Shown here one piece after another: positions 2,755 through 17,868 of a DNA stretch of 20,000 nucleotides. A model generated the notes under the pieces. That model worked only from the letters and a program-made list of their open reading frames with translations, ran no database searches and had not been told where the DNA came from. How positions within the stretch are numbered: the first letter of the stretch is position 1; each line of letters starts with the position of its first letter. The position numbers were made by a program, and so were the translations under genes. Origin of the DNA: an uncultured virus (IMG/VR IMGVR_UViG_3300025869_000012) (Duplodnaviria > Heunggongvirae > Uroviricota > Caudoviricetes); IMG/VR virus record IMGVR_UViG_3300025869_000012. The stretch is one strand, 5' to 3'.

Positions 2755-5700
2755 CTAGGTGCCAACGCTGTTGTAGTCTACCCTGTCAGTATTGTAATCT
2801 GCTCTTGTAGTATTGTAAAAAGATATACCAGTAGTAAATGTTGTTGTTGTGTTAAATACCGTGTTAGTACTTATAACAGTATTGGTTGCTCTTGTAGTAT
2901 TGTAAGTTGTAGTAGTAGCTCTATTAGTTGATACCACAGTTGTTGTGTTAGTTGAAGTGTTGTAAGTTGTAGTTGTATTTCTGTTTGTAAGGGTTGACGT
3001 GTTAAATACAGTAACAGTTGCTGTTGTGGTGTTGAACGTGGTAGTTGTAGCTGTGGTAGTATTAAATACTGTGGCTGTGATTCTGATTGTTCCTGTAGCC
3101 GTGCTGGTAGATTTGCTTGTTTCGTATGTAGTTGTAGTGGCTCTGTTAGTTGACACAACAGTACTTGTAGCTTTCTCCGTAACAGTACTTGTATTAAATA
3201 CAGTTGTTGTGTTTCTATTTGTACTTATAGTAGTTATAAATATTGTAGTTCTTGATGTGTTAAAGGTTGTGGTTGTGTCAATATTTGTTTCGTACGTCGT
3301 GCTATATACAGTTATAGTGTTAGTACTTGTGTTAAAAGTAGTTGTGGTAGCTGTGCTAGTGTTAAACGTTGTTACTGTAGCTGTTGTAGTATTAAATACC
3401 GTTATTGTATTTGTTGATGTATTAAATACGGTATTAGTTGTTCTATTAGTTGACACTACTGTATTTGTAGCTTTACTAGTATTTGTTGATGTGTTAAATA
3501 CAGTGGTTGTACTAGTATTTGTATTATAAGCAGTTGTTGTACCTCTTGTAGTATTAAAAGTTGTTGTAGTATCTACATTAGTTGAGTATGTTGTTGTATA
3601 TGCCGTAATAGTGTTGGTTGATGTATTAAAAGTTGTGGTAGTATCGATGTTTGTAGATACTGTCGTGCTTGTTGCTCTATTTGTACTAACTACAGTACTA
3701 GTTGCTTTTTGTGTTACAGTTGATGTATTAAATACAGTAACAGTAGCTGTACTAGTATTGAAAGTAGTAGTTGTTGCTCTATTTGTTGATACAGTTGTTG
3801 TAGTATTAAAAGTTGTTGTAGTACTAGTATTAAAAGTTGTAGTAGTAGCTGTACTAGTATTAAAAGTCGTTGTTGTAATAAATGTGGTTGTAGTTGAAGT
3901 GTTAAATACAGTAACGGTAGCCGTGCTTGTATTAAACGTAGTTGTAGTATCAACGTTTGTAGACACCGTGGTACTAGTAGTAACAGTTGTAGCAGTGCTT
4001 GTGTTAAATACAGTATTTGTAGTTTTTGTAGTTTCGTATGTAGTAGTAGTTGCTCTATTTGTACTGTATGTAGTTGTAGTACCAAATGTAGTCGTTGTGC
4101 TAGTATTAAAGGTGGTGGTTGTAGCTTGGTTAGTACTATATGTAGTTGTTGTATTAAACACAGTTGTTGTACTGGTATTGAATACTGTTACTGTGCTGGT
4201 AGAAGTATTAAAAGCAGTAGTAGTGGCTCTGTTTGTAGATATAGTTGTAGTTCTTGATGTTTGCGTTGTAGTCGAAGTATTAAAAACAGTGTTAGTTGTT
4301 TTTGTTGTTTCAAACGTGGTGGTCGTAGCTCTATTTGTACTAATAGTAGTAGTTCTACTAGTTGCTGTAGATGTTGACGTATTAAATGTAGTTGTTGTAG
4401 CTCTATTAGTAGATATAGTCGTAGTCCTTGAAGTCTGTGTTGTTGTGCTTGTATTAAATACAGTATTAGTTGCTGTTGACGTATTATATGTAGTAGTAGT
4501 TGCCCTATTTGTACTTATCGTAGTGGTTCTGCTAGTAGAGGTTGCAGTCGAGGTATTAAAAGTAGTTGTGGTGGCTCTGTTAGTAGAGTATGTTGTTGTT
4601 GTAGCTCTATTGGTAGATATAGTAGTTGAGCGAGATGTAGATGTAGTAAACACAGTTGTCGTTGCTCTATTAGTAGAATATGTTGTGCTAGTTCCAAATG
4701 TAGTTGTCGTTGCTCTATTGGTAGATATAGTCGTGCTAGTTCCAAAGGTAGTTGTTGTAGACCTATTTGTTGAAACGGTTGTGCTGGTTGCAAATGTTGT
4801 GGTTGTGTTATAAGTTGTAGTTGTATTAAAAGTAGTGGTTGTGGCACGGTTAGTACTAAACGTTGTGGTTGTACTTGTATTAAATGTTGTTGTTGTTGCT
4901 CTATTAGTAGAATATGTTGTAGTAGTTCCAAATGTAGTTGTTGTAGATCTACTTGTTGATACAGTTGTACTAGTTGCAAACGTTGTAGTTGTATTAAAAG
5001 TCGTAGTTGTGTTAAACGTGGTAGTTGTGGCACGGTTGGTACTAATTGTTGTTGTTGTACTAGTGTTAAATGTAGTTGTAGTACTTCTACTTGTAGCGGT
5101 GCTTCTACTTGTAGCAGTACTTTTAGTTGTGTTAAACGTTGTGGTTGTACTAGTGTTAAACACGGTATTAGTGGCTCTACTTGTAGACATAATGGTGGTT
5201 CTACTTGTGGCAGTACTTCTACTTGTAGATTTATTAGTTACCGTACTTGTGTTAAATATTGTTGTGGTATTAAACGTAGTAGTTGTGTTTCTGTTAGTAG
5301 ATGTATTTCTACTTGTAGCTGTTGTTTTATTTGTTATTGTACTAGTATTAAATGTAGTGGTAGTTGCCCTATTAGTACTTATAGTTGTAGTTCTACTAGT
5401 TTGAGTTGTTGTAGACGTGTTAAACGTAGTAGTAGTTGAACTACTTGTAGCGGTGCTTCTAGTTGTTAGTTTGTTTGTTATTGTGCTGGTGTTAAATATT
5501 GTTGTGGTGTTAAAAGTTGTTAGAGTTGTGTAGGTTGTAGTTGTATTAGTACTAGTATTAAACGTTGTAGTTGTGCCAGTACTGTATCCACCACCATCTG
5601 TTCTTGCAGCGTGACAGTCTAATGATGCACCATTATCAAAAATACCAGACGCTGACGGAAGCGTATCACTACCAATAGGAAGTAACACAGGCTGATTAAC

Positions 5701-6297
5701 ATCAAACTCAAACCAACTAGTATTATCAGTACCACCTTCTATTTCATATGAAACATTTTCACTATCAGCACTATGCCTTAATCTAATTCTACCACCATTA
5801 TCCATTAAAGCCTTAAGTACATTGTACTGGCTATCCCCATCCGCATCTGTAGCAGACATTGCCAGTTTAGTAACACTTAGAACAGCAGCATTATTACCTC
5901 TTATTTGACCGGCACCAGGATTTGCCATTGAAACATTTGTACTCCAGTTAAATACAGCACCTTCGTTGGTCCCGTCACCTCTAAACAGTATTTGATTTTT
6001 TGTTGTAGCAAGAACCGTATTAGTACTTGTATTAAACGTTGTTGTAGTATTAAACGTTGTTGTAGTATTTCTGCTAGTAGACGTTGATCTACTTTCCGTC
6101 GTGGTTCTATTTGTAGACACTGTGGCACTAGTAGCTGTTGATCTAGTTGTAGCTGTTGCTCTAGTTGTGGTAAACGTAGTGGTAGTACTTTTACTTGTAG
6201 CTGTTGACCTAGTTGTGTTAAAAGTTGTGGTTGTATTTGTTGCTGTAAGTCTATCTGTAACTAAAGATGTTTGAAAAGTTGTAGTAGTATTAGGCAT
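2755..6297 (-). CDS. Giant Thr-rich repeat protein B (~1180 aa) with one globular insert; probable virion fibre or surface protein
   Basis: Long open frame of FNTSTTTT / STNRATTTT / STATSRS modules. Likely start is the ATG at 6297 (MPNTTTTF), overlapping the methyltransferase stop. Non-repetitive domain at ~5580-6000. Confidence 0.85.
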   Translation of the reverse strand: MPNTTTTFQTSLVTDRLTATNTTTTFNTTRSTATSKSTTTTFTTTRATATTRSTATSATVSTNRTTTESRSTSTSRNTTTTFNTTTTFNTSTNTVLATTKNQILFRGDGTNEGAVFNWSTNVSMANPGAGQIRGNNAAVLSVTKLAMSATDADGDSQYNVLKALMDNGGRIRLRHSADSENVSYEIEGGTDNTSWFEFDVNQPVLLPIGSDTLPSASGIFDNGASLDCHAARTDGGGYSTGTTTTFNTSTNTTTTYTTLTTFNTTTIFNTSTITNKLTTRSTATSSSTTTTFNTSTTTQTSRTTTISTNRATTTTFNTSTITNKTTATSRNTSTNRNTTTTFNTTTIFNTSTVTNKSTSRSTATSRTTIMSTSRATNTVFNTSTTTTFNTTKSTATSRSTATSRSTTTTFNTSTTTTISTNRATTTTFNTTTTFNTTTTFATSTTVSTSRSTTTTFGTTTTYSTNRATTTTFNTSTTTTFSTNRATTTTFNTTTTYNTTTTFATSTTVSTNRSTTTTFGTSTTISTNRATTTTFGTSTTYSTNRATTTVFTTSTSRSTTISTNRATTTTYSTNRATTTTFNTSTATSTSRTTTISTNRATTTTYNTSTATNTVFNTSTTTQTSRTTTISTNRATTTTFNTSTSTATSRTTTISTNRATTTTFETTKTTNTVFNTSTTTQTSRTTTISTNRATTTAFNTSTSTVTVFNTSTTTVFNTTTTYSTNQATTTTFNTSTTTTFGTTTTYSTNRATTTTYETTKTTNTVFNTSTATTVTTSTTVSTNVDTTTTFNTSTATVTVFNTSTTTTFITTTTFNTSTATTTTFNTSTTTTFNTTTTVSTNRATTTTFNTSTATVTVFNTSTVTQKATSTVVSTNRATSTTVSTNIDTTTTFNTSTNTITAYTTTYSTNVDTTTTFNTTRGTTTAYNTNTSTTTVFNTSTNTSKATNTVVSTNRTTNTVFNTSTNTITVFNTTTATVTTFNTSTATTTTFNTSTNTITVYSTTYETNIDTTTTFNTSRTTIFITTISTNRNTTTVFNTSTVTEKATSTVVSTNRATTTTYETSKSTSTATGTIRITATVFNTTTATTTTFNTTTATVTVFNTSTLTNRNTTTTYNTSTNTTTVVSTNRATTTTYNTTRATNTVISTNTVFNTTTTFTTGISFYNTTRADYNTDRVDYNSVGT

Positions 6298-7354
6298 TAT
6301 CTGCACCTCCTTCCCCAATAAGTATACCGTTAACAAAGTAATTATAGTTAACGCCTAGCTTACATATTTCGTATATAGTATTATCTGAGTCATCAAAATC
6401 TATTTGTGTTATTTCTATTTCATCACCAGCAACGCCATATAACTTATCACCAACAAGTAGTTGATTTACATTAAAATCTCGCCACGTATTATTTCTTTTT
6501 GCTATTATAGGCTGGTTGCCAGTTGCTTTTAAATTAGAGTTGATAGTGTAAATACCTTTTGCTTTCATTACAAAAACATTTTTATCACCTCTTTGTTTTG
6601 TTGATGTTTTACCTGATACATCTGATGTCAATAGTGTGTCGTGTTTAACCGCTTGCCACATAGGAACAGCATCATCACTGTTAACATGAATAGTAGCGTC
6701 TTGCCTTACCACGCCATAGCCTGTTGCTGGCTTTTGATTTGTATACACAGGTAAGTGATATACAGTTCTGTTGAAATATTGATTTGCAGGTGGATTAATA
6801 TTAACATCGTAAAAATCAATATGATCATCTGGCCAATAAAACTTCATCCACGGGTCTGTTGTACCACCGCTCCAGTTCCACCACGATATTCTACTGCCTT
6901 GCTTTGCTTTTTGCTTTACAAAATACGCAAACTTTGGGTGTAAGTCTGCATCAGCGTATGTGTCCATTAATATAACGTCGTACCTACCCGCTTCTTGCAT
7001 TAAACTAAACCACCTGTCGTTTACGGCTCTTACTGTTGGATTACTAGAGGCAAACTCAGCTAGCTTAGGTTGTATTTGTGGATGCGTTTCTGCTATTGTA
7101 TGTGATGCAGGTTTTCTAGCCTGCACAGCTGTAGCTAATATACCCATGCCAAAACCACACTCTAGAACATGGTCACCTTCATTAACGCACACCTCTGCCA
7201 TCTTTTCCATAATAGGCTGTTCCCAACCCATCATAACCTCCCATGTTTCTTGCGCTGCCGGGTTAAACCAAACAATATCACCATTGTCCCTAACTGTAAG
7301 GTCTGCCTCGTGATAATTGACTTGTGTATCCGACGGTTTTTCGTATCCTGACAT
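6290..7354 (-). CDS. Rmt2/GAMT-like class I SAM-dependent methyltransferase fused to a C-terminal degenerate Hint domain
   Basis: VMMGWEQPIM, VLECGFGMGI (SAM motif I), IAETHP, ILMDTY and SWWN parallel guanidinoacetate/Rmt2 methyltransferase motifs. The C-terminal ~140 aa has the Hint pattern IYTINSNLKATGNQP...LLVGDKL...EIEITQI...TIYEI...NYFVNGILI. Confidence 0.8.
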   Translation of the reverse strand: MSGYEKPSDTQVNYHEADLTVRDNGDIVWFNPAAQETWEVMMGWEQPIMEKMAEVCVNEGDHVLECGFGMGILATAVQARKPASHTIAETHPQIQPKLAEFASSNPTVRAVNDRWFSLMQEAGRYDVILMDTYADADLHPKFAYFVKQKAKQGSRISWWNWSGGTTDPWMKFYWPDDHIDFYDVNINPPANQYFNRTVYHLPVYTNQKPATGYGVVRQDATIHVNSDDAVPMWQAVKHDTLLTSDVSGKTSTKQRGDKNVFVMKAKGIYTINSNLKATGNQPIIAKRNNTWRDFNVNQLLVGDKLYGVAGDEIEITQIDFDDSDNTIYEICKLGVNYNYFVNGILIGEGGADNA

Positions 7355-7380
7355 ATTTTTATTATTACATGTTTATTTTC

Positions 7381-10300
7381 TTAGTTACAACCTCTACTAC
7401 AGCCACCACCGCCACCACTTGCTGTGAATGTTGATCTTGATGTGTTGAACGCTGTTACGAATACTGTAGTTGTATTTGTTGCTGTAGATCTTGTTGTATT
7501 AAACGTAGTTGTGGTATTATACGTGGTTGTTGTACTTCTTGATGTATTGTAAGCTGTAGTTGTGCTAAATGTAGTGGTTGTATTAAACACGGTTGTGGTG
7601 TTAAATGTGGTCGTTGTATTGTATGTGGTTGTAGTGTTAAATGTTGTTTCAGTAGTTCTATTTGTTGATGTATCTCTATTAGTAGAAACAATTGTCACAA
7701 ACGCGGTGTAATGAGACTTGGATCTACCAACGGTTGTCGTAGCGGTAGTAGTACTAGTGTTATATGTTGTACTAGTACTTCTAGATTCTGTTGTATTTCT
7801 ACTAGTTGCTGTAGCTCTATTAGTAGATCTTATATGTGATGAATATGTAGTTGTAAACTGAGTTGTTGTATCAAACGTGGTAGTCGTATTTCTATTTGTA
7901 CTATATGTGGTAGTGGTACCAAACGTTGTAGTGGTACTAGTATTGAAAGTAGTTGTAGTAGCTCTATTGGTTGCCCGTATGTGTGATGCGTATGTAGTTG
8001 TGGTATTAAATGTAGTAGTGGTAGTAAATACAGTATTTGTAGTTCTACTAGTTGCCGTAGATCTATTAGTAGATCTTATAAGCGATGAATATTGCGTTAC
8101 AAAAGTTGTAGTTGTACTAAACGTAGTGGTAGTACTAGTATTAAATGTTGTTGTGGTATCTCTATTTGTTGATATAGTAGTACTCTTGCTCGTGTTATAT
8201 GTGGTTGTTGTGTTAAAAGTGGTTGTTGTGTTAAAAGTAGTTGTCGTAGCTCTATTTGTACTGATTGTTGTACTAGTACTAGTATTAAATGTAGTAGTTG
8301 TTGATCTACTTGTTGCTGTAGATTTACTTGTAGCTGTACTTCTAGTAGTCTGTGTGTTTGTGCTAGTATTGAATGTGGTTGTAGTTGATTTACTAGTTTG
8401 TGTCGTTGTGCTAGTATTAAACGTAGTTGTCGTGGCTCTATTTGTACTGATTGTTGTACTAGTACTGGTGTTAAACGTGGTGGTCGTTGATCTACTTGTT
8501 GCTGTACTTTTGCTTGTAGCTGTACTTCTAGTGGTCTGTGTATTTGTACTGGTGTTAAAAGTAGTTGTGGTTGACCTACTAGTTTGCGTAGTTGTACTAG
8601 TGTTAAACGTAGTGGTAGTTGATTTACTTGTTTGCGTTGTGGTGCTAGTGTTAAATGTAGTTGTAGTAGCTCTATTAGTACTAGTACTAAACGTAGTTGT
8701 TGTAGACGTGTTAAACGTAGTTGTGGTACTTGTAGAAGTATTAAACGTAGTAGTTGTAGCTCTATTAGTTGAATACGTAGTAGTAGTATTAAACGTTGTC
8801 GTAGTAGATGTATTAAAAGTAGTAGTAGTATTTGTACTTGTATTATACGTTGTAGTCGTATTTCTATTTGTACTATATGTGGTAGTGGTACCAAAAGTTG
8901 TAGTGGTACTAGTGTTGAAAGTAGTTGTGGTAGCTCTATTTGTTGAGTACGTAGTTGTGGTATTGAATGTTGTAGTGGTAGACGTATTAAATGTTGTTGT
9001 AGTACTCTTACTCGTATTAAAAGTGGTAGTTGTATCTACATTAGTAGAATATGTAGTGGTAGTACCAAACGTGGTAGTAGTACTTGTATTAAATACAGTT
9101 GTAGTAGATTTACTTGTTTCATATGTAGTAGTTGTAGCCCTGTTAGTAGATATGGTAGTTGTCCTGTTTGTAGATGTAGACGTACTAGTATTAAATGTAG
9201 TGGTAGTTGCCCTATTAGTACTTATAGTTGTAGTTCTACTAGTTTGAGTTGTTGTTGAAGTATTAAATGTGGTGGTTGTATTAGTACTTGTGTTATAAGT
9301 TGTTGTAGTGTTTCTATTTGTAGATATAGTTGTACTTCCAGCGGTGGTTGTATTAGTACTTGTATTAAACACAGTATTAGTAGACCTACTAGTTGATACC
9401 ACCGTATTAGTAGCTCTGTTAGTTGATATAGTTGTAGTTCTACTTGTAGATGTTGACCTATCAGTTTCGTAAGTAGTGGTGGTTGCTCTATTAGTACTTA
9501 TTGTAGTTACTCTACTTGTAGCTGTGGCAGTAGAAGTATTAAATGTAGTTGTGGTTGCTCGGTTAGTAGATACTACAGTATTAGTAGCTATATTAGTTTC
9601 GTATGTAGTTGTATATGCTGTAATCGTATTAGTGCTAGTGTTAAACACTGTAACAGTATCCGTACTAGTATTAAATACAGTATTAGTTGCTCTATTAGTA
9701 CTAACAACTGTACTTGTTGACTTTTGTGTAACCGTACTTGTATTAAACACTGTGTTTGTGGTGGTTGATGTGTTAAACGTTGTGGTAGTGCTTGTTGATG
9801 TGTTGTACGTAGTGGTAGTTGCTCTGTTGGTAGCTATTGTAGTCGTAAATACAGTTGTAGTACTAGTTGATGTGTTGAATGTTGTTGTAGTATCTATATT
9901 GGTACTATACTCAGTAGATGTTGATCTATTGGTTACAACAACAGTATTGGTAGCTCTATTAGTAGAGTATGTTGTGGTAGTATTTCTATTAGTTGATACC
10001 ACCGTGCTTGTTGTCTTCTGTGTTACAGTAGACGTATTGAAAACAGTATTAGTAGTTCTAGTTGTTTCAAATATCGTTGTTCTACTAGTTTCATATGCTG
10101 TTTCAAAAACAGTATTAGTGGTTATGTTAGTAGAGAAAGTCGTAGTAAAGTTTGTTGTAGTATTAGTAGATGTATTAAATGTAGTAGTGGTAGATGTGCT
10201 AGTGTTGAAAGTTGTGGTAAACGTAGTGGTAGTATTGAAAACTGTACTAGTATCTATATTAGTCGAGTATGCAGTATTAGTAGTTCTGTTAGTACTAACT

Positions 10301-10530
10301 ACTGTATTGGTTGATCTGTTTGTAGAAAGTGTTGTATTGAAAGCTGTCGTCGTGGATGTTGACGTATTAAAGGTTGTTGTAGTTGATGTAGACGTGTTGA
10401 ATGTGGTAGTTGTACTTGTAGATGTGTTGAATGTGGTTGTTGTAGAATACGCTGTCTGCGTCGTACGGTTTGTAGACGTGCTCCTCGAAGTTGAGGTACT
10501 TCTCTTAAATATTCTAAATAAATCCCACAT
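7381..10530 (-). CDS. Giant Thr-rich repeat protein A (1049 aa); probable virion fibre or surface protein
   Basis: Open frame built from the same modules as protein B, with a short N-terminal MWDLFRIFKR and a C-terminal SGGGGGCSRGCN. Lies directly downstream of a tail-fibre-like gene. Confidence 0.85.
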   Translation of the reverse strand: MWDLFRIFKRSTSTSRSTSTNRTTQTAYSTTTTFNTSTSTTTTFNTSTSTTTTFNTSTSTTTAFNTTLSTNRSTNTVVSTNRTTNTAYSTNIDTSTVFNTTTTFTTTFNTSTSTTTTFNTSTNTTTNFTTTFSTNITTNTVFETAYETSRTTIFETTRTTNTVFNTSTVTQKTTSTVVSTNRNTTTTYSTNRATNTVVVTNRSTSTEYSTNIDTTTTFNTSTSTTTVFTTTIATNRATTTTYNTSTSTTTTFNTSTTTNTVFNTSTVTQKSTSTVVSTNRATNTVFNTSTDTVTVFNTSTNTITAYTTTYETNIATNTVVSTNRATTTTFNTSTATATSRVTTISTNRATTTTYETDRSTSTSRTTTISTNRATNTVVSTSRSTNTVFNTSTNTTTAGSTTISTNRNTTTTYNTSTNTTTTFNTSTTTQTSRTTTISTNRATTTTFNTSTSTSTNRTTTISTNRATTTTYETSKSTTTVFNTSTTTTFGTTTTYSTNVDTTTTFNTSKSTTTTFNTSTTTTFNTTTTYSTNRATTTTFNTSTTTTFGTTTTYSTNRNTTTTYNTSTNTTTTFNTSTTTTFNTTTTYSTNRATTTTFNTSTSTTTTFNTSTTTTFSTSTNRATTTTFNTSTTTQTSKSTTTTFNTSTTTQTSRSTTTTFNTSTNTQTTRSTATSKSTATSRSTTTTFNTSTSTTISTNRATTTTFNTSTTTQTSKSTTTTFNTSTNTQTTRSTATSKSTATSRSTTTTFNTSTSTTISTNRATTTTFNTTTTFNTTTTYNTSKSTTISTNRDTTTTFNTSTTTTFSTTTTFVTQYSSLIRSTNRSTATSRTTNTVFTTTTTFNTTTTYASHIRATNRATTTTFNTSTTTTFGTTTTYSTNRNTTTTFDTTTQFTTTYSSHIRSTNRATATSRNTTESRSTSTTYNTSTTTATTTVGRSKSHYTAFVTIVSTNRDTSTNRTTETTFNTTTTYNTTTTFNTTTVFNTTTTFSTTTAYNTSRSTTTTYNTTTTFNTTRSTATNTTTVFVTAFNTSRSTFTASGGGGGCSRGCN
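8245..8616 (-). repeat. Internal ~186-nt (62-codon) tandem duplication in protein A
   Basis: cgtagctctatttgtactgattgttgtactagtact at 8245 recurs as cgtggctctatttgtactgattgttgtactagtact at 8431. The protein units (QTTRSTATSKSTATSRSTTTTFNTSTSTTISTNRAT) are near-identical with many synonymous differences. Confidence 0.8.
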
Positions 10531-10538
10531 ATACTACA

Positions 10539-11180
10539 TTATGAAAAATCACCAACAAAATTGACTAATGCTTGAGTTGATGATATCACAACGTATGATA
10601 TTACTGACGTGTCGTTTGCTCCTGTAGCAAAATTTACACTAGCACCCGCTGGTGTTAGCATGTTACTTGGTAAAGCTGCCATAGCAAAATCTGCCCCTAT
10701 ACTTGAAGGGTTTTTAAGTATTATAACACCAGATTGTCCAACGTTTTCACTGGCTATTGTCATAACTAATGAGTTTGAATTATCTACTAAGTTAACTACA
10801 AAGTTATCGTTTGCTGTTAAATTTATCGTTGATACACCACTACTAGGCGTTACTGTTGTTATTGTTCTTCTTAAATTTTGAGTTACTTTTATACTACCTG
10901 TTACATCAAAATCACTACTTACTGTTCCTGAACCTGTCAGAGCTAATGTGCTACCATCAAATGTTAAATTAGCCTCGCCGTTTAAACTGTCGGCATCAGA
11001 TGTTGTTATTATCCTATTATCAGCGCCATTAGCAATATCTACATTACTATAATTTGCTTTTGTAAAATTACCAAGTTGTGCTAGCGTAAAGTTTTTAGTT
11101 GAACCTGATACATCTGTACCTATCAACTTATCACCGTCTGTTAAACTTGTGTCTGCTGCTATTCTACTAATTCTAGGCAT
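10539..11180 (-). CDS. Tail-fibre-like structural protein
   Basis: Likely start at ATG 11180 (MPRISRIAAD...). Contains DGDKLIGTD and DNRIITTSDADSLNGEANLTFDGSTL, segments I associate with marine phage tail fibres, and a beta-rich C-terminus. Confidence 0.7.
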   Translation of the reverse strand: MPRISRIAADTSLTDGDKLIGTDVSGSTKNFTLAQLGNFTKANYSNVDIANGADNRIITTSDADSLNGEANLTFDGSTLALTGSGTVSSDFDVTGSIKVTQNLRRTITTVTPSSGVSTINLTANDNFVVNLVDNSNSLVMTIASENVGQSGVIILKNPSSIGADFAMAALPSNMLTPAGASVNFATGANDTSVISYVVISSTQALVNFVGDFS

Positions 11181-11184
11181 ACTA

Positions 11185-11583
11185 CTATTTTTTATTAAAC
11201 TTCTCGAAACTTCGACCGCCAAAATAGGCACCGATTACAGTTATCAATACTAACTGTAGCAAGTCCGTCCATTTTTGTTCTACGTTAAAATTAACTGATC
11301 CACTATCCACAAATACCATAAGGACAGTTGATACAATAAGGAAAACTAGCACAAGGGGTCTTACCGATCTTGTTAGCCAGTTGCCGTGTTCTAAATCTGC
11401 TTTCCATCTTTCTGTTACGTTTTTCTGCATTGCAGCTTCAGCGTCAATCAAGACTTTAGTCATCTCTTTTTCAAACGCTTGCTTCTCTGCACCTGTTGTT
11501 ATAAACCTATCAGCAACGCCAGCTATTTTATCTATAAAGCTACCAGCTGCGCCACCGAATAATTTTCCTAATATCTTACTCAT
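11185..11583 (-). CDS. 3TM holin (GTA_holin_3TM-like)
   Basis: N-terminal amphipathic segment, then RWKAD...WLTRSVRPL followed by two hydrophobic helices and a C-terminal GAYFGGRSFEK, typical of this family. Confidence 0.8.
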   Translation of the reverse strand: MSKILGKLFGGAAGSFIDKIAGVADRFITTGAEKQAFEKEMTKVLIDAEAAMQKNVTERWKADLEHGNWLTRSVRPLVLVFLIVSTVLMVFVDSGSVNFNVEQKWTDLLQLVLITVIGAYFGGRSFEKFNKK

Positions 11584-13213: not shown

Positions 13214-13471
13214 CTAGTCTATTAACACTACATCACCAACTTTGATGATATAGTATAATATATCTTTATGTTGTATGCTGTGTCCAGCGTGTTTATCATA
13301 ATGCACCACATCGCCCTCGCTTACGCCTTCAACGAGGTTACCTATACTAATAACCTCAGCCTTTACATACCTATTGTCACTGTCTACACTATCCATAATG
13401 TCTAGACCAGCAATTTTTTTAGGTTTTTCTTTTATGTTTTTAACTACTATATAATAACTAACGGCTTTCAT
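13214..13471 (-). CDS. groES: Co-chaperonin GroES (Cpn10)
   Basis: YIVVK...KKIAGLDI...AEVISIGNLVEGVSEGDVVHYDKHAG...YYIIKVGDVV matches the Cpn10 pattern. Overlaps the groEL 3' end. Confidence 0.9.
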   Translation of the reverse strand: MKAVSYYIVVKNIKEKPKKIAGLDIMDSVDSDNRYVKAEVISIGNLVEGVSEGDVVHYDKHAGHSIQHKDILYYIIKVGDVVLID

Positions 13472-15032
13472 TTGGATTCAGTCTAATATTACTTACAATA
13501 CAATCAGCCGACGTTATAGTAGTCGCAACACTCACCGCATTTTTTAATGCAGTCTTTGTAACTAAGACGGGGTCTACGATTCCAGCTTTGATCATTTCAA
13601 CACTATTACCCGAGATAACATCAAAACCAACGCCAGTGTTGGTAGGCGTTTCGTAGTTTTCAATACCAGCATTATTCATTATAGTGATAAAAGGTGATTT
13701 AATCGACTTCGCTAGTATTTTCTCCCCAATATTGTTACTTTTTTCAAGCTCTTGCGCAGCGTTAAGTAGCGCTATACCACCACCTGCAACAATACCTTCA
13801 CGTAAAGCTGCTTTAGTAGCGTAAATAGCATCCTCAACCCTGTCCTTCTTTTCTTTCAATTCAACCTTTGATACAGCACCAACGCGTATCATACCAACCG
13901 AACCGCTTAACATGCTCAGTCTTTGTTGTAAATGCTTCTTTAGAAACGGATCTTTCTCTTTTTCAATGAGCTTTTCCACTTCTTTTATTCTTTCCTGTAT
14001 TACCTTAGTGTCTTTATTAACAGTTAACACAGTTTTTTCACCGTCTGTTACGCTTTTTAGCGCAGAACCAAGCACATCTGGCTGTATTAGGTCTAAATCA
14101 TCGCCTAATTCTTCATTTATTACCTTTGCACCGGTTAAAATTGACAAATCTTCAAGCGTTCCTTGCCTTGTAGACATAAAACCAGGTAAATCTATGATGT
14201 TTACGTCTATATTGCCCTTAATCTTGTTCATTAAAAGCGCAGATTTTGCTTTTTCGTCAATTTGTGCCATAATTAGCAGTGATTGCCTGCTTTGAATCAC
14301 ATGCTCTAGCACGTTTTGTATCTTTCTAAGGCTAGGTATGTTACAATTTACAATTAAAATAGCAGGGTTATCAAGTTCTGCTACACCTTTGTCCTTATTT
14401 GTAGTAAAATGTGGTGATGTTAGGCCAGCTTCAAACTGTACGCCATCAACTATTTCAGCAAAAGTCTTTTCAGATTCAGACTCTTCCATCATTACTACAC
14501 CATTTTTACCTACTTCTTTGTAAGCTTGTGATATAATTTTTCCAATTTGCCTATCGTTGTTGCAACTAATACTGCTAACGTGCTCCAAAAGATCACCTTC
14601 AACCTCAACACTTTCTCTTTCAAGATATTTATTAACTTTATCCAAGCCTGTATAAATACCGTCTTTAATTTCACGTATAGTTTTGTTAGATAATTCTTCA
14701 TTTATGTTTTTTAGTAAAGCTTCGGTTAAAACTATTGATGTGGTTGTACCATCACCTGCTTCCGCTACTGTTTTGGCCGATGCTTGTTTTACGAGTCTTG
14801 CTCCTATATTCTCCACGGGATCAAGCAGGACAACTGATTCTGCTACAGTTACACCGTCCTTTGTGATCACTGGAGAGCCTAAAGCGTCTTCGTATATTAC
14901 ACACATACCTGAGGCACCCAGGGTGGACTTCACTGCTGCAGCTAGTTTATCCACACCTGCTAATACCTTTTCTCTGGCTTTATCGCCAAAATTAAGATCT
15001 TTAACGATCTCACTAGGGTTATTATATTCCAT
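13458..15032 (-). CDS. groEL: Chaperonin GroEL (Cpn60), phage-encoded
   Basis: AVKSTLG, ITKDGVTVA, AGDGTTTS, ELKEKKDRVEDAIYATKAALREGIVAGGG and GIVDPVLVTKTALKNAVSVA. No GGM tail. Confidence 0.97.
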   Translation of the reverse strand: MEYNNPSEIVKDLNFGDKAREKVLAGVDKLAAAVKSTLGASGMCVIYEDALGSPVITKDGVTVAESVVLLDPVENIGARLVKQASAKTVAEAGDGTTTSIVLTEALLKNINEELSNKTIREIKDGIYTGLDKVNKYLERESVEVEGDLLEHVSSISCNNDRQIGKIISQAYKEVGKNGVVMMEESESEKTFAEIVDGVQFEAGLTSPHFTTNKDKGVAELDNPAILIVNCNIPSLRKIQNVLEHVIQSRQSLLIMAQIDEKAKSALLMNKIKGNIDVNIIDLPGFMSTRQGTLEDLSILTGAKVINEELGDDLDLIQPDVLGSALKSVTDGEKTVLTVNKDTKVIQERIKEVEKLIEKEKDPFLKKHLQQRLSMLSGSVGMIRVGAVSKVELKEKKDRVEDAIYATKAALREGIVAGGGIALLNAAQELEKSNNIGEKILAKSIKSPFITIMNNAGIENYETPTNTGVGFDVISGNSVEMIKAGIVDPVLVTKTALKNAVSVATTITSADCIVSNIRLNPNESR

Positions 15033-16523: not shown

Positions 16524-16550
16524 AATTACAGGTTTCTATTAGTATTTAAG

Positions 16551-16695
16551 TAGTGTGACAATAGGCCCTTATTATTAGACTATATAGGGCTAATGTCACT
16601 ATAAAAAAATTGTGAGATAATTAGAAGTAGAGTGTTGTACTATGACATTATGTCATACATATAAAAATAAAAATGACAATATGACAATGGGCCCC
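16551..16695. repeat. TGACA-containing inverted and direct repeat cluster at the strand switch
   Basis: Imperfect inverted repeat gtgacaataggccct...agggctaatgtcac (16555-16599), palindrome tatgacat-t-atgtcata (16641-16657) and direct repeat atgacaat x2 (16673-16688). Confidence 0.75.
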
Positions 16696-16730
16696 ACCAA
16701 TATTCTAGAAATACAACATTATTATTTTCA

Positions 16731-16761
16731 ACAATCTATATACGATGCCATATAGATAATA
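16731..16761 (+). promoter_or_regulatory. Repeated promoter-like motif, copy 1
   Basis: ACAATCTATATACGA-TGCCATA-TAGATAATA, upstream of the ORF at 16792. Confidence 0.7.
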
Positions 16762-16791
16762 CTACTATACAAACAAAAACAAATATATCTT

Positions 16792-16923
16792 ATGACTAAA
16801 TTAAAATTCACTTCACTTGACTACAATAAATTCATACAAACTATTGATTCACTAGATTCCAATAATAATGATTACACAATTGAAACTGATTATTTAGATT
16901 CTTATTATATAATAATAAAATAA
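16792..16923 (+). CDS. Small hypothetical protein (43 aa)
   Basis: Manual translation MTKLKFTSLDYNKFIQTIDSLDSNNNDYTIETDYLDSYYIIIK*, following motif copy 1 and an A-rich leader. Confidence 0.55.
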   Translation: MTKLKFTSLDYNKFIQTIDSLDSNNNDYTIETDYLDSYYIIIK

Positions 16924-16992
16924 ATAGAAAAAGAGAGATAGTGCGGTATACTTTACTAACTAAAAATATACAATAAACAATTACACTACTTT

Positions 16993-17023
16993 ACAATGTA
17001 AATACTATAACTATAAGATAACA
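16993..17023 (+). promoter_or_regulatory. Repeated promoter-like motif, copy 2 (degenerate)
   Basis: ACAATGTAAATACTA-TAACTAT-AAGATAACA, upstream of the ORF at 17059. Confidence 0.6.
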
Positions 17024-17058
17024 TTACTATACAACTTAAACATAAAACAAATACAACT

Positions 17059-17286
17059 ATGAATACAATCACTTCTAAAAGATTTGTAGTAAGAAAAAGT
17101 CTTCTTAATACAAACACAAACATAACTTTCACTAATAAAAAAGGAAAAGAAATTACTTACTCACACGATAAAGTATTTAATATAATGAAAGATACTCTCA
17201 CTAACTTACCATGTTGGTTAAAGTATAAGAGTTACACTGCTACTAATAATATTCCATTAGTACTTAGAGATAAAGAGTTAGTTTAA
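17059..17286 (+). CDS. Hypothetical early protein
   Basis: 75-aa ORF after an A-rich leader (aaaacaaatacaactATG). Confidence 0.75.
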   Translation: MNTITSKRFVVRKSLLNTNTNITFTNKKGKEITYSHDKVFNIMKDTLTNLPCWLKYKSYTATNNIPLVLRDKELV

Positions 17287-17301
17287 TAGCTCTTTACCTC
17301 A

Positions 17302-17348
17302 TCTAGTCTTGGAGCAGAGGTGGGTTTCGACTACTCACACTAGAACTA
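17302..17348 (+). ncRNA. Minimal tRNA-like element (acceptor-like stem plus T-arm, no anticodon arm)
   Basis: tctagt (17302-17307) pairs with actaga (17339-17344). gtgggt-TTCGACT-actcac forms a T-arm with a canonical 7-nt T-loop. Confidence 0.5.
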
Positions 17349-17362
17349 AATTACAACTTACT

Positions 17363-17461
17363 ATGAAGAATAATAAACTAATTACAGAGACACTAATGTC
17401 TATAACTTTCTTAACACTTTTAACATTACTACTATGGATAACACTAATAATAATAGGATAA
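17363..17461 (+). CDS. Small single-TM membrane peptide (32 aa)
   Basis: Manual translation MKNNKLITETLMSITFLTLLTLLLWITLIIIG*. Confidence 0.5.
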   Translation: MKNNKLITETLMSITFLTLLTLLLWITLIIIG

Positions 17462-17544
17462 CTATACTAACCTCAGAAGAAATACAAATGGTTTTAGATA
17501 ACTGGTATGACAGGTTAGATTCAAGTGATGAGTTTACAATGTAA
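17434..17544 (+). CDS. Small acidic hypothetical peptide (36 aa)
   Basis: Manual translation MDNTNNNRITILTSEEIQMVLDNWYDRLDSSDEFTM*, overlapping the previous ORF. Confidence 0.4.
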   Translation: MDNTNNNRITILTSEEIQMVLDNWYDRLDSSDEFTM

Positions 17545-17566
17545 ACACGATCATTAATAGATAATA
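17536..17566 (+). promoter_or_regulatory. Repeated promoter-like motif, copy 3
   Basis: ACAATGTAAACACGA-TCATTAA-TAGATAATA, upstream of the ATG at 17580. Confidence 0.7.
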
Positions 17567-17579
17567 TATATAAACAACT

Positions 17580-17732
17580 ATGAATACAATTAAATTTCTA
17601 CCAAACAATAAAATACTACTTAATAATAAAACATTATTAAACAAAATAAATAACACTAACCAGTATGCCTCTTGGTATACTATTAAAAACAAAAACTATG
17701 GCGATACAATACAACGCTTACCAATCAATTAA
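17580..17732 (+). CDS. Small hypothetical protein (50 aa)
   Basis: Manual translation MNTIKFLPNNKILLNNKTLLNKINNTNQYASWYTIKNKNYGDTIQRLPIN*. The start context acaactATGAATACAAT is the same as for the ORF at 17059. Confidence 0.5.
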   Translation: MNTIKFLPNNKILLNNKTLLNKINNTNQYASWYTIKNKNYGDTIQRLPIN

Positions 17733-17868
17733 ATGTGGTAAAAACACAACAGAAAAAGATTTATACGAACTATTTGGCGACGCTATAACCGTCCATGATG
17801 GTAAAGGTAATGAAATAAAAGACTATTTTAAACATAAATACAACAAAAGAAATGGCTGGAATAACTAA
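17698..17868 (+). CDS. Small hypothetical protein
   Basis: ORF-track frame 17665..17868. The ATG at 17698 (aaaacaaaaactATG, MAIQYNAY) has the better context. Confidence 0.6.
   Translation: MAIQYNAYQSIKCGKNTTEKDLYELFGDAITVHDGKGNEIKDYFKHKYNKRNGWNN

Follow-up and report, generated by a model that had tools for sequence, protein, structure and literature searches.

The range of cells open to a phage is set by its fibres and, to our knowledge, the known fibres are built from parallel identical chains. In the needle of T4 gp37, as described in PMC6957217, the chain runs out to the tip and back again within a trimer, with both of its ends on the virion side; the collar domain D10 combines residues 811-881 with residues 1010-1026, and histidines bind seven iron atoms. 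A further described system is the Peptidase_S74 domain, reported to mark phage tailspikes and fibres and to form homotrimers (PMC8326128, PMC6972908). We analysed here a stretch of 20,000 nucleotides from an uncultured marine virus of the Caudoviricetes (IMG/VR record IMGVR_UViG_3300025869_000012), called the window below, in which two long Thr-rich genes, A and B, lie on one strand on either side of a smaller middle gene. The comparative data alone point to a fibre made of two different chains, or of one chain folded back, in an antiparallel arrangement: from the comparison of sequences, we consider it likely that the A and B proteins are the antiparallel, in-register arms of one long fibre. 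In the open-access papers searched we found no description of a two-chain antiparallel fibre of matched length, nor of this gene set.

Gene A (7381-10530, minus strand) encodes a Thr-rich (xT)n chain of 1049 residues, 48% of them Thr, which we propose as the outward arm, and gene B (2755-6297, minus strand) encodes an (xT)n chain of 1180 residues, likewise Thr-rich, proposed as the returning arm. The preliminary description of this DNA had started B at an upstream TTG (6336); we take instead the ATG at 6297, which is preceded 8 nt upstream by GGAGGT (6305-6310) and overlaps the stop of the middle gene. The only part of A that is not repeat at its N-terminal end is the peptide MWDLFRIFKRST (10495-10530, minus), and the N-termini of A are aromatic and basic in all clades (MKWLWNKIDFW, MKNIGFSRIDFW and others). 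At its other end, A finishes with the tail GGGGGCSRGCN, a Gly run followed by Cys-x-Arg-Gly-Cys (7384-7416, minus). B begins with 104 Thr-rich residues (5986-6297, minus), between the presumed tip and a globular insert domain that is looped out of the arm (residues 105-229; 5611-5985, minus), and ends with a non-repeat peptide (residues 1168-1180; 2758-2796, minus); the C-terminal tails of B are conserved within clades and specific to each. We propose that the N-terminal peptide of A and the C-terminal peptide of B are anchors at the base of the fibre. Searched as single sequences, A, B and the middle protein matched no Pfam or PHROG family, and a search of the ESM Atlas with A returned nothing but unnamed viral clusters.

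The preliminary description had drawn attention to landmark motifs that follow one another in opposite orders in the two proteins. All of them were found again, a few bases from where it had placed them, and their order is indeed reversed. From the N-terminus, A carries SRTTIF (residue 149), STVTQK (167 and 265), TNTITAY (300), SRTTTISTNRAT (363 and 431), FGTTTTYSTN (488, 546 and 870), STATS(K/R)S (669-737), TTESRSTS (913) and FNTTRSTAT (1010), and B carries FNTTRSTAT (26), TTESRSTS (66), SRTTTISTNRAT (301 and 589-681), STATSRS (393 and 399), FGTTTTYSTN (456 and 738), STVTQK (859), TNTITAY (894), SRTTIF (1015) and STVTEK (1037). The reversal concerns whole zones and is not exact at the level of single blocks (copies of FGTTTTYSTN and of SRTTTISTNRAT are intermingled), and the anti-diagonal zones are visible in a coarse dot plot of A against B. 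Tandem Repeats Finder gives the same picture, with a 174-bp array (8747-9084, minus) followed by a 186-bp one (8231-8613, minus) in A, and a 186-bp array (4682-5079, minus) followed by a 174-bp one (4205-4600, minus) in B; both 186-bp (62-aa) arrays lack one unit in the relative L004. The positions of rare shared 8-mers are negatively correlated between the proteins (Spearman -0.54; -0.45 to -0.55 for k = 8-10), as the same description had anticipated, and beyond what shuffling B in blocks produces: the 8-mer value was reached in 0/500 shuffles with 30-aa blocks, 0/500 with 60-aa blocks and 5/500 with 120-aa blocks, the values for k = 8-10 in 0 to 14/500 according to k and block size, and that of the weakest setting (k = 12, 120-aa blocks) in 39/500. 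The near-equality in length also stands, the Thr-rich parts amounting to 1028 residues in A and 1042 in B once the insert of B is set aside. An antisense-gene artefact was rejected, A and B having no overlap.

Relatives of the locus were collected by searching viral contigs with the middle protein (47 loci) and with the 301-aa protein encoded downstream of B (80 loci, on contigs partly shared with the former), and 41 complete A/B pairs with distinct lengths, the window included, formed the comparison set; an earlier, smaller set held 23 loci. The lengths of A and B had been expected to co-vary, and they do (r = 0.93 at full length, n = 41), with a much tighter relationship for the Thr-rich lengths (r = 0.9966, Spearman 0.992), which range from 392 to 1643 residues and differ by at most 16 residues in 38 of the 41 pairs. 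In two further loci, both truncated, the arms reach at least 1850 and 1937 aa. The match holds whatever lies between the two genes: a gene for a methyltransferase joined to a Hint-like domain, as in the window (21 loci, with A ending in a Gly run with a CxRGC or RG tail); a gene related to guanidinoacetate methyltransferase (GAMT) together with a second, distant methyltransferase-like gene (4 loci, with A ending in a domain of about 105 aa and then a Gly-run/RG tail); a methyltransferase-like gene of about 190 aa alone (12 loci, with a Peptidase_S74 C-terminus on A); or nothing at all (4 loci, with A ending in a Hint domain that has Cys1, TxxH and a terminal His-Asn).

Equal lengths alone would fit a reading in which A and B form separate homo-oligomeric fibres without lengthwise contact, and are of one length because both have to bridge an equal distance on the virion. 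The fibres of phages are mostly homotrimeric, and a Peptidase_S74 domain does stand at the C-terminus of A in some relatives: both of the L069-type relatives tested carry it (L069 with 24.6 bits and L106 with 28.7, for a cut-off of 22), and the other ten loci of this type share the same tail ending. Such an arrangement, however, needs only the total length to be kept, and it is the internal changes of length that speak most clearly.

Locus pairs were taken for this comparison when A was at least 80% and B at least 75% identical, and 11 pairs passed. L011/L012 was free of indels, L007/L012 and L009/L011 were dropped as repeats of the same events, and L004/L005 was left uncounted because one exchange of contiguous central DNA could explain its many small indels, which all lie in the C-terminal third of A and the N-terminal half of B. 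Nine events were thus counted, independent by clade and position. The net sizes of the indels in A and B are equal in all nine (62/62, 36/36, 14/14, 12/12, 12/12, 68/68, 24/24, 10/10, and 28 against 10+6+12), and, in coordinates that count repeat residues only, their distances from the C-terminal end of A and the N-terminal end of B are 338/337, 519/509, 127/116, 375/351, 235/231, 354/342, 307/303, 310/278 and 180/195. Read in the antiparallel sense, the nine pairs of positions correlate with r = 0.993 and are on average 12.6 residues apart, a fit equalled in 0 of 200000 draws of random positions; read in parallel, they give r = -0.51, and the average offset grows to 297 residues. The two insertions of a pair differ in sequence, with identical residues in 0/48, 3/49 and 5/26 of the columns that are not Thr in both.

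Two further observations bear on how the arms would lie. First, the globular insert of the window's B protein is homologous to an insert of chain A in L007-L011 (BLASTP E-values of 6e-10, 1e-8, 1e-8, 4e-6 and 6e-3 in a small local database), the alignment spanning the whole domain for L007, L009 and L011. The insert stands about 100 residues from the N-terminus of B in the window and about 97 residues before the C-terminus of A in L007-L011; an antiparallel pairing would bring both sites to a single place along the fibre. Second, one contig encodes the kind of fused A-B chain for which the preliminary description had suggested to look, with the presumed turn at its midpoint. In L093 (3550-7440 of an IMG/VR contig of 15090 bases), one open reading frame of 1297 aa replaces A and B, with an A-type N-terminus and a B-type C-terminus, both closely similar to those of L097; it is Thr-rich save for a unique 10-residue linker at residue 643, which separates halves of 642 and 645 residues. 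The aromatic positions of the reversed first half correlate with those of the second half (r = 0.59, against 0.23 in parallel), and Hint domain, S74 domain and methyltransferase gene are all absent from this locus.

Antiparallel pairing of A with B, or a split hairpin, with the C-terminus of A and the N-terminus of B at one tip, is supported by the k-mer order, the co-variation of lengths and the fused chain, and beyond these by the mirrored indels and the shared insert site. Separate fibres leave unexplained the indels of equal size at mirrored positions, as well as the mirror-ordered zones, the shared insert site and the fusion through a linker at the midpoint, and we regard them as very unlikely. 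As to the insert domain itself, Foldseek gave no match at E <= 0.001, and the highest Z of a wide VIA search, 5.4, was for portions of phage tail and baseplate proteins and is under the stated noise of 7-8; no fold was assigned. In L016 and L022, a non-repeat domain makes up the last ~90 residues of B, i.e. the proposed base end; in the remaining clades it is near the tip that additional domains are found.

Could the mirror order be a neutral by-product of the dynamics of repeat arrays, with no structural coupling between the chains? The two arrays lie close together on one strand and have types of repeat in common, and we considered three routes: growth from the centre of the locus, retention of ancestral types by the repeats at the edges, and gene conversion between A and B. 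Growth from the centre was rejected, the best A/B match zones lying in the middle of the arms and not at the adjoining inner ends. Blocks of 17-33 residues are identical in protein between A and B despite scrambled synonymous sites: in 24 of 25 such blocks the identity at third codon positions is 0.19-0.62, for a chance level of 0.33. With synonymous sites this near to random, the shared blocks are old and have been held by selection, and do not derive from recent gene conversion. The exceptional block (A418/B288), 76% identical at third positions, does suggest some exchange. The matched indels, however, differ in sequence and lie 3-4 kb apart, so that no single event makes both, and an identity of lengths within 1-2% over a four-fold range needs selection; we find a neutral origin of the whole pattern highly improbable.

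A strict period of two residues runs through some 900 residues of each chain, with T/F/R/Y/I/K (the bulky phase) at one position and T/S/N/A/V at the other. There is no phase slip over residues 245-1150 of B, and A has only short local exceptions. The units from one aromatic residue to the next measure 4 to 34 residues (spacings of 3 to 34 by a second count) and are nearly all even, and the lengths of the repeat units in A are all even. Between close orthologues, mismatches reach 7.3-7.4% in the bulky phase and 16.8-16.9% in the small-residue phase, i.e. the bulky phase changes 2.3 times more slowly. The unbroken two-residue period suggests that the segments are long and extended, similar to beta strands and constrained on one of their faces. 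The varying length of the units makes a regular solenoid unlikely, and the constant coil length of a TxT beta-solenoid was not found. One might also see in A and B flexible, possibly glycosylated, mucin-like tethers without regular fold, for which the 48% Thr, supplemented by Ser and Asn, and the absence of any Pfam or PHROG family could be invoked. Such tethers would have no reason to hold a two-residue phase over ~900 residues or to conserve one phase 2.3-fold better than the other, and they account neither for the 17-33-residue identical blocks with scrambled synonymous sites nor for the mirrored compensation of indels, which leaves them with very little probability.

The order of aromatic residues was compared in all 41 loci. 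The correlation of reversed A with B at full length (r 0.18-0.63) is above the parallel one in 40/41 loci and exceeds all 100 rotations in 36/41, the strings of aromatic spacings favour the antiparallel order in 32/41, and, in the set of 23 loci, the correlation of 8-mer positions is negative in 22, and among the lowest 5 of 200 shuffles in 8. A heteromeric fibre with A and B in parallel, N-terminus with N-terminus, is hardly credible: in L076 and most of the L007 clade the parallel alignment of the spacing strings is indeed the better one, but the indel positions contradict it, the full-length aromatic correlation is lower in parallel in 40/41 loci, and the 10-residue linker of L093 is too short to span parallel extended arms of 640 residues.

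Several points nevertheless weigh against in-register antiparallel arms. Among the tests just given, the spacing strings of most of the L007 clade and of L076 are one; several loci also show little or no k-mer anticorrelation, and in L031 the correlation is positive. High local aromatic correlations follow in part by construction, since the forward unit is the same in mirrored zones and any unit in which each period has two aromatics reads alike in both directions. With the shift left free, an antiparallel one near zero is the best overall in only 7/41 loci, in a test confounded by short overlaps, which gave higher values. Two indels have no partner (-24 in A of L004 relative to the window, and +6 in A near the tail, in L009 relative to L011). 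Three pairs differ in Thr-rich length by 39-137 residues, namely L019 (-137), L004 (-40) and L108 (-39); in L019 (6151-7213), A ends in an odd non-Thr tail overlapped by a second, short Thr-rich frame, which is probably a frameshift or an assembly error. The fused form occurs in one contig, the exact DNA of its linker matching only L093 among viral contigs and a degenerate pattern of the linker having no match in metagenome contigs. All the relatives are metagenome assemblies, in which repeats may be mis-assembled, and the loci are related by descent. Finally, the A protein of the window has no Pfam match for Peptidase_S74, and anything concluded from that domain about a trimer is borrowed from relatives.

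Under the proposed arrangement of antiparallel arms, the Thr-rich (x-Thr)n segments of A and B would lie side by side in opposite directions, over ~1030-1040 residues in this virus. The base would unite the N-terminal peptide of A with the C-terminal peptide of B, and the far tip would unite the Gly/Cys/Arg tail of A with the N-terminus of B, the ~125-residue globular domain looping out of B about 100 residues from the tip. As the arms must keep their register, one of them would accept a change of length only if the other changed equally at the mirrored place. Over time, such paired changes would make the lengths equal and put the repeat zones in mirror order, with duplications paired across mirrored sites building zones of like period. 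Each type of block may pair in antiparallel with its own copy, giving a locally two-fold symmetric contact; the blocks would for this reason still read forwards in both chains. The trimeric state, A3B3, is a guess on our part, prompted by the S74 chaperone domain on A in one clade. A role of A and B as tail fibre or adhesin would suit this picture.

The gene between the arms encodes 354 aa (6290-7354, minus), and its reading as a methyltransferase followed by a Hint domain, already made in the preliminary description, is right by sequence, profile and fold matches. The methyltransferase domain (about residues 20-205; 6740-7297, minus) contains the S-adenosylmethionine-binding motif ECGFGMG and matches GAMT chains with E 1.5e-8 as a single sequence (phmmer) and 3.7e-17 as a profile of 18 homologues. 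The AlphaFold2 model of the protein (pLDDT 81.9) has GAMT 1xcj and 3orh as its top Foldseek matches. ECGFGMG and the WE and DTY motifs, as aligned to GAMT, are invariant in 18/18 homologues; the Glu of WE and the Asp of DTY, which we take to hold the guanidino group in GAMT, are identical here (E45 and D131). The homologues bear the precomputed label PF27704.

The Hint-like domain (about residues 214-349; 6308-6715, minus) is catalytically degenerate. Its fold matches in Foldseek the BIL2 domain 6y75/6tmm (TM 0.69-0.70 over 156 columns) and also the PhoCDC21-1 intein, and its profile matches the mini-intein chain 9hth_A (E 1.6e-4). Position 1, placed by alignment to Cys1 of the L097-type Hint, is not a nucleophile: it is Gly214, nearly invariant in the 18 homologues. 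Block B reads TGNQP in the window, in place of Thr-x-x-His, and TGNHP in most homologues, and the protein ends with NYFVNGILIGEGGADNA, in place of a C-terminal His-Asn. Judged by these residues, the domain cannot act as an intein. In L076, L097, L107 and L108, a homologous Hint domain (E 3e-10) is fused to A as its C-terminal 160-220 residues and keeps Cys1, TxxH and the terminal His-Asn; that of L097 matches the Pho RadA intein with E 5e-4, and the Pfam Hint models stay under cut-off for L107 and L076 and have no match in L097. The fused domains keep ANGILTHN, but the next residue is F, K, R or N in place of Cys, Ser or Thr. A Cys-rich tail follows them in 3/4 of these loci, where B starts 8-79 nt downstream.

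By a strict pattern, the Gly-run/Arg-Gly tail of A is found in 19/25 loci with a GAMT-like gene and 0/16 without, an association confounded by descent; variant tails (GGCxRGC, CLRGC, CFRNC) or the frameshift of L019 account for the six misses. An arginine of the fibre is the likely target of the methyltransferase, possibly the one in the tail of A; an alternative is offered by the roughly 50 arginines of each arm, all in the bulky phase. The middle gene would be an accessory tip factor, a guanidino-type methyltransferase borne on a dead Hint that may dock it. The protein of about 190 aa found between A and B in L031, L036, L037, L039 and the twelve L069-type loci bears a distant resemblance to class I methyltransferases, with Pfam matches under threshold and a weak match to the GAMT-like domain (E 4e-5 to 1e-2), and occurs with or without a GAMT-like gene.

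One might go further and speculate that the fibre is a closed hairpin whose tip is joined by protein chemistry. In L076, L097, L107 and L108, the Hint of A would form a thioester at the last residue of A proper and pass the chain to the N-terminus of B, yielding a covalent hairpin like the one that L093 encodes. In the window's clade, the Hint without chemistry would have been kept as a means of binding the tip, through which an arginine methyltransferase reaches the Gly-run/Arg-Gly tail. With the arms fully extended, the length of the fibre, ~130 to >500 nm, would be set per residue and tuned by paired slippage of repeats. The combination of Hint thioester, docking by the dead Hint and full extension seems to us a doubtful proposition, on the unlikely side.

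The surroundings of the three genes are phage-like. The minus strand carries all genes of the window from 3 to ~16500, and this leftward block includes the start of a large terminase, a GroEL, two GroES-like genes and a holin-like gene. The 301-aa gene directly downstream of B (1790-2695, minus) belongs to PHROG 26179, a family of unknown function, and occupies this place in every related locus seen; its product has only 22-26% matches, in Caulobacter and Vibrio phages, and could be an adaptor or assembly factor for the base of the fibre. The holin-like gene (11185-11583, minus; PHROG 3427, with Pfam GTA_holin_3TM just under cut-off) lies two genes upstream of A. The virus has its own GroEL (13458-15032, minus; PHROG 5725, E 2e-133; Pfam Cpn60_TCP1), near the fibre genes and with matches of at most 41%, and two GroES-like proteins (13214-13471 and 735-1331, both minus); that these are linked to the folding of very long fibre chains is only a thought. 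A gene-poor stretch of ~28% G+C (16524-17851) separates the leftward block from rightward open reading frames and is possibly a divergent promoter or control region. The long open frames opposite A and B (2999-5404 and 7877-10564, plus strand; up to 456 aa) arise from the repeats of Thr codons and are not genes, and the same repeats are the source of the strongly positive GC skew (0.4-0.47) over these stretches. The related contigs are up to about 70 kb long. No cultured relative was found: a megablast search of phage records with the neighbourhood was without match, and tblastn with the middle protein gave a single distant uncultured one. A scan of genome contigs gave no clue to the host, its one hit being a 28% match, to the methyltransferase part alone, in a metagenome-assembled genome of the Pseudomonadota.

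Compensation of indels across two genes is an unusually clean natural record of structural co-evolution, and gives the register of the arms without a structure. If the arms are extended strands, the fibre would amount to a ruler whose length can be tuned genetically, with a very large aspect ratio, and possibly to a scaffold for protein engineering. The modules at the tip (S74 chaperone, active-looking Hint, dead Hint with arginine-type methyltransferase, plain linker) appear interchangeable and may offer a natural series on how very long beta fibres are nucleated and capped.

How does this compare with what has been described? The Thr-rich TxT beta-solenoids of antifreeze proteins share with A and B the alternating x-Thr pattern, which suggests flat beta faces lined with Thr; the coil length of solenoids is fixed, whereas the units of A and B vary in length and keep only their evenness. 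With respect to GAMT, the enzyme of the window is encoded by a phage, fused to a Hint domain and set between two fibre genes, and protein arginine is its proposed substrate; the yeast arginine methyltransferase RMT2 is of GAMT type. Within the Hint superfamily (inteins, BIL domains, Hedgehog), the window's copy stands behind a methyltransferase and is not inserted in a host protein. With the S74-chaperoned fibres, L069 and L106 share the C-terminal domain, which places A among the virion fibre proteins folded from their C-terminal end, whereas the A protein of the window ends in the Gly run and CxRGC; we know of no S74 fibre that depends on a partner chain as long as itself, and searches of the literature found none. 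T4 gp37, with its needle, is the nearest analogue, the out-and-back topology suggested for A and B being of a like kind. The HxH motif is absent from the translations of A and B, unlike the T4 needle, and no sequence similarity was found. The arms of that needle, some twenty times shorter, measure about 60 residues and belong to one chain, whereas those of A and B measure 392-1643 residues and are usually the products of two genes.

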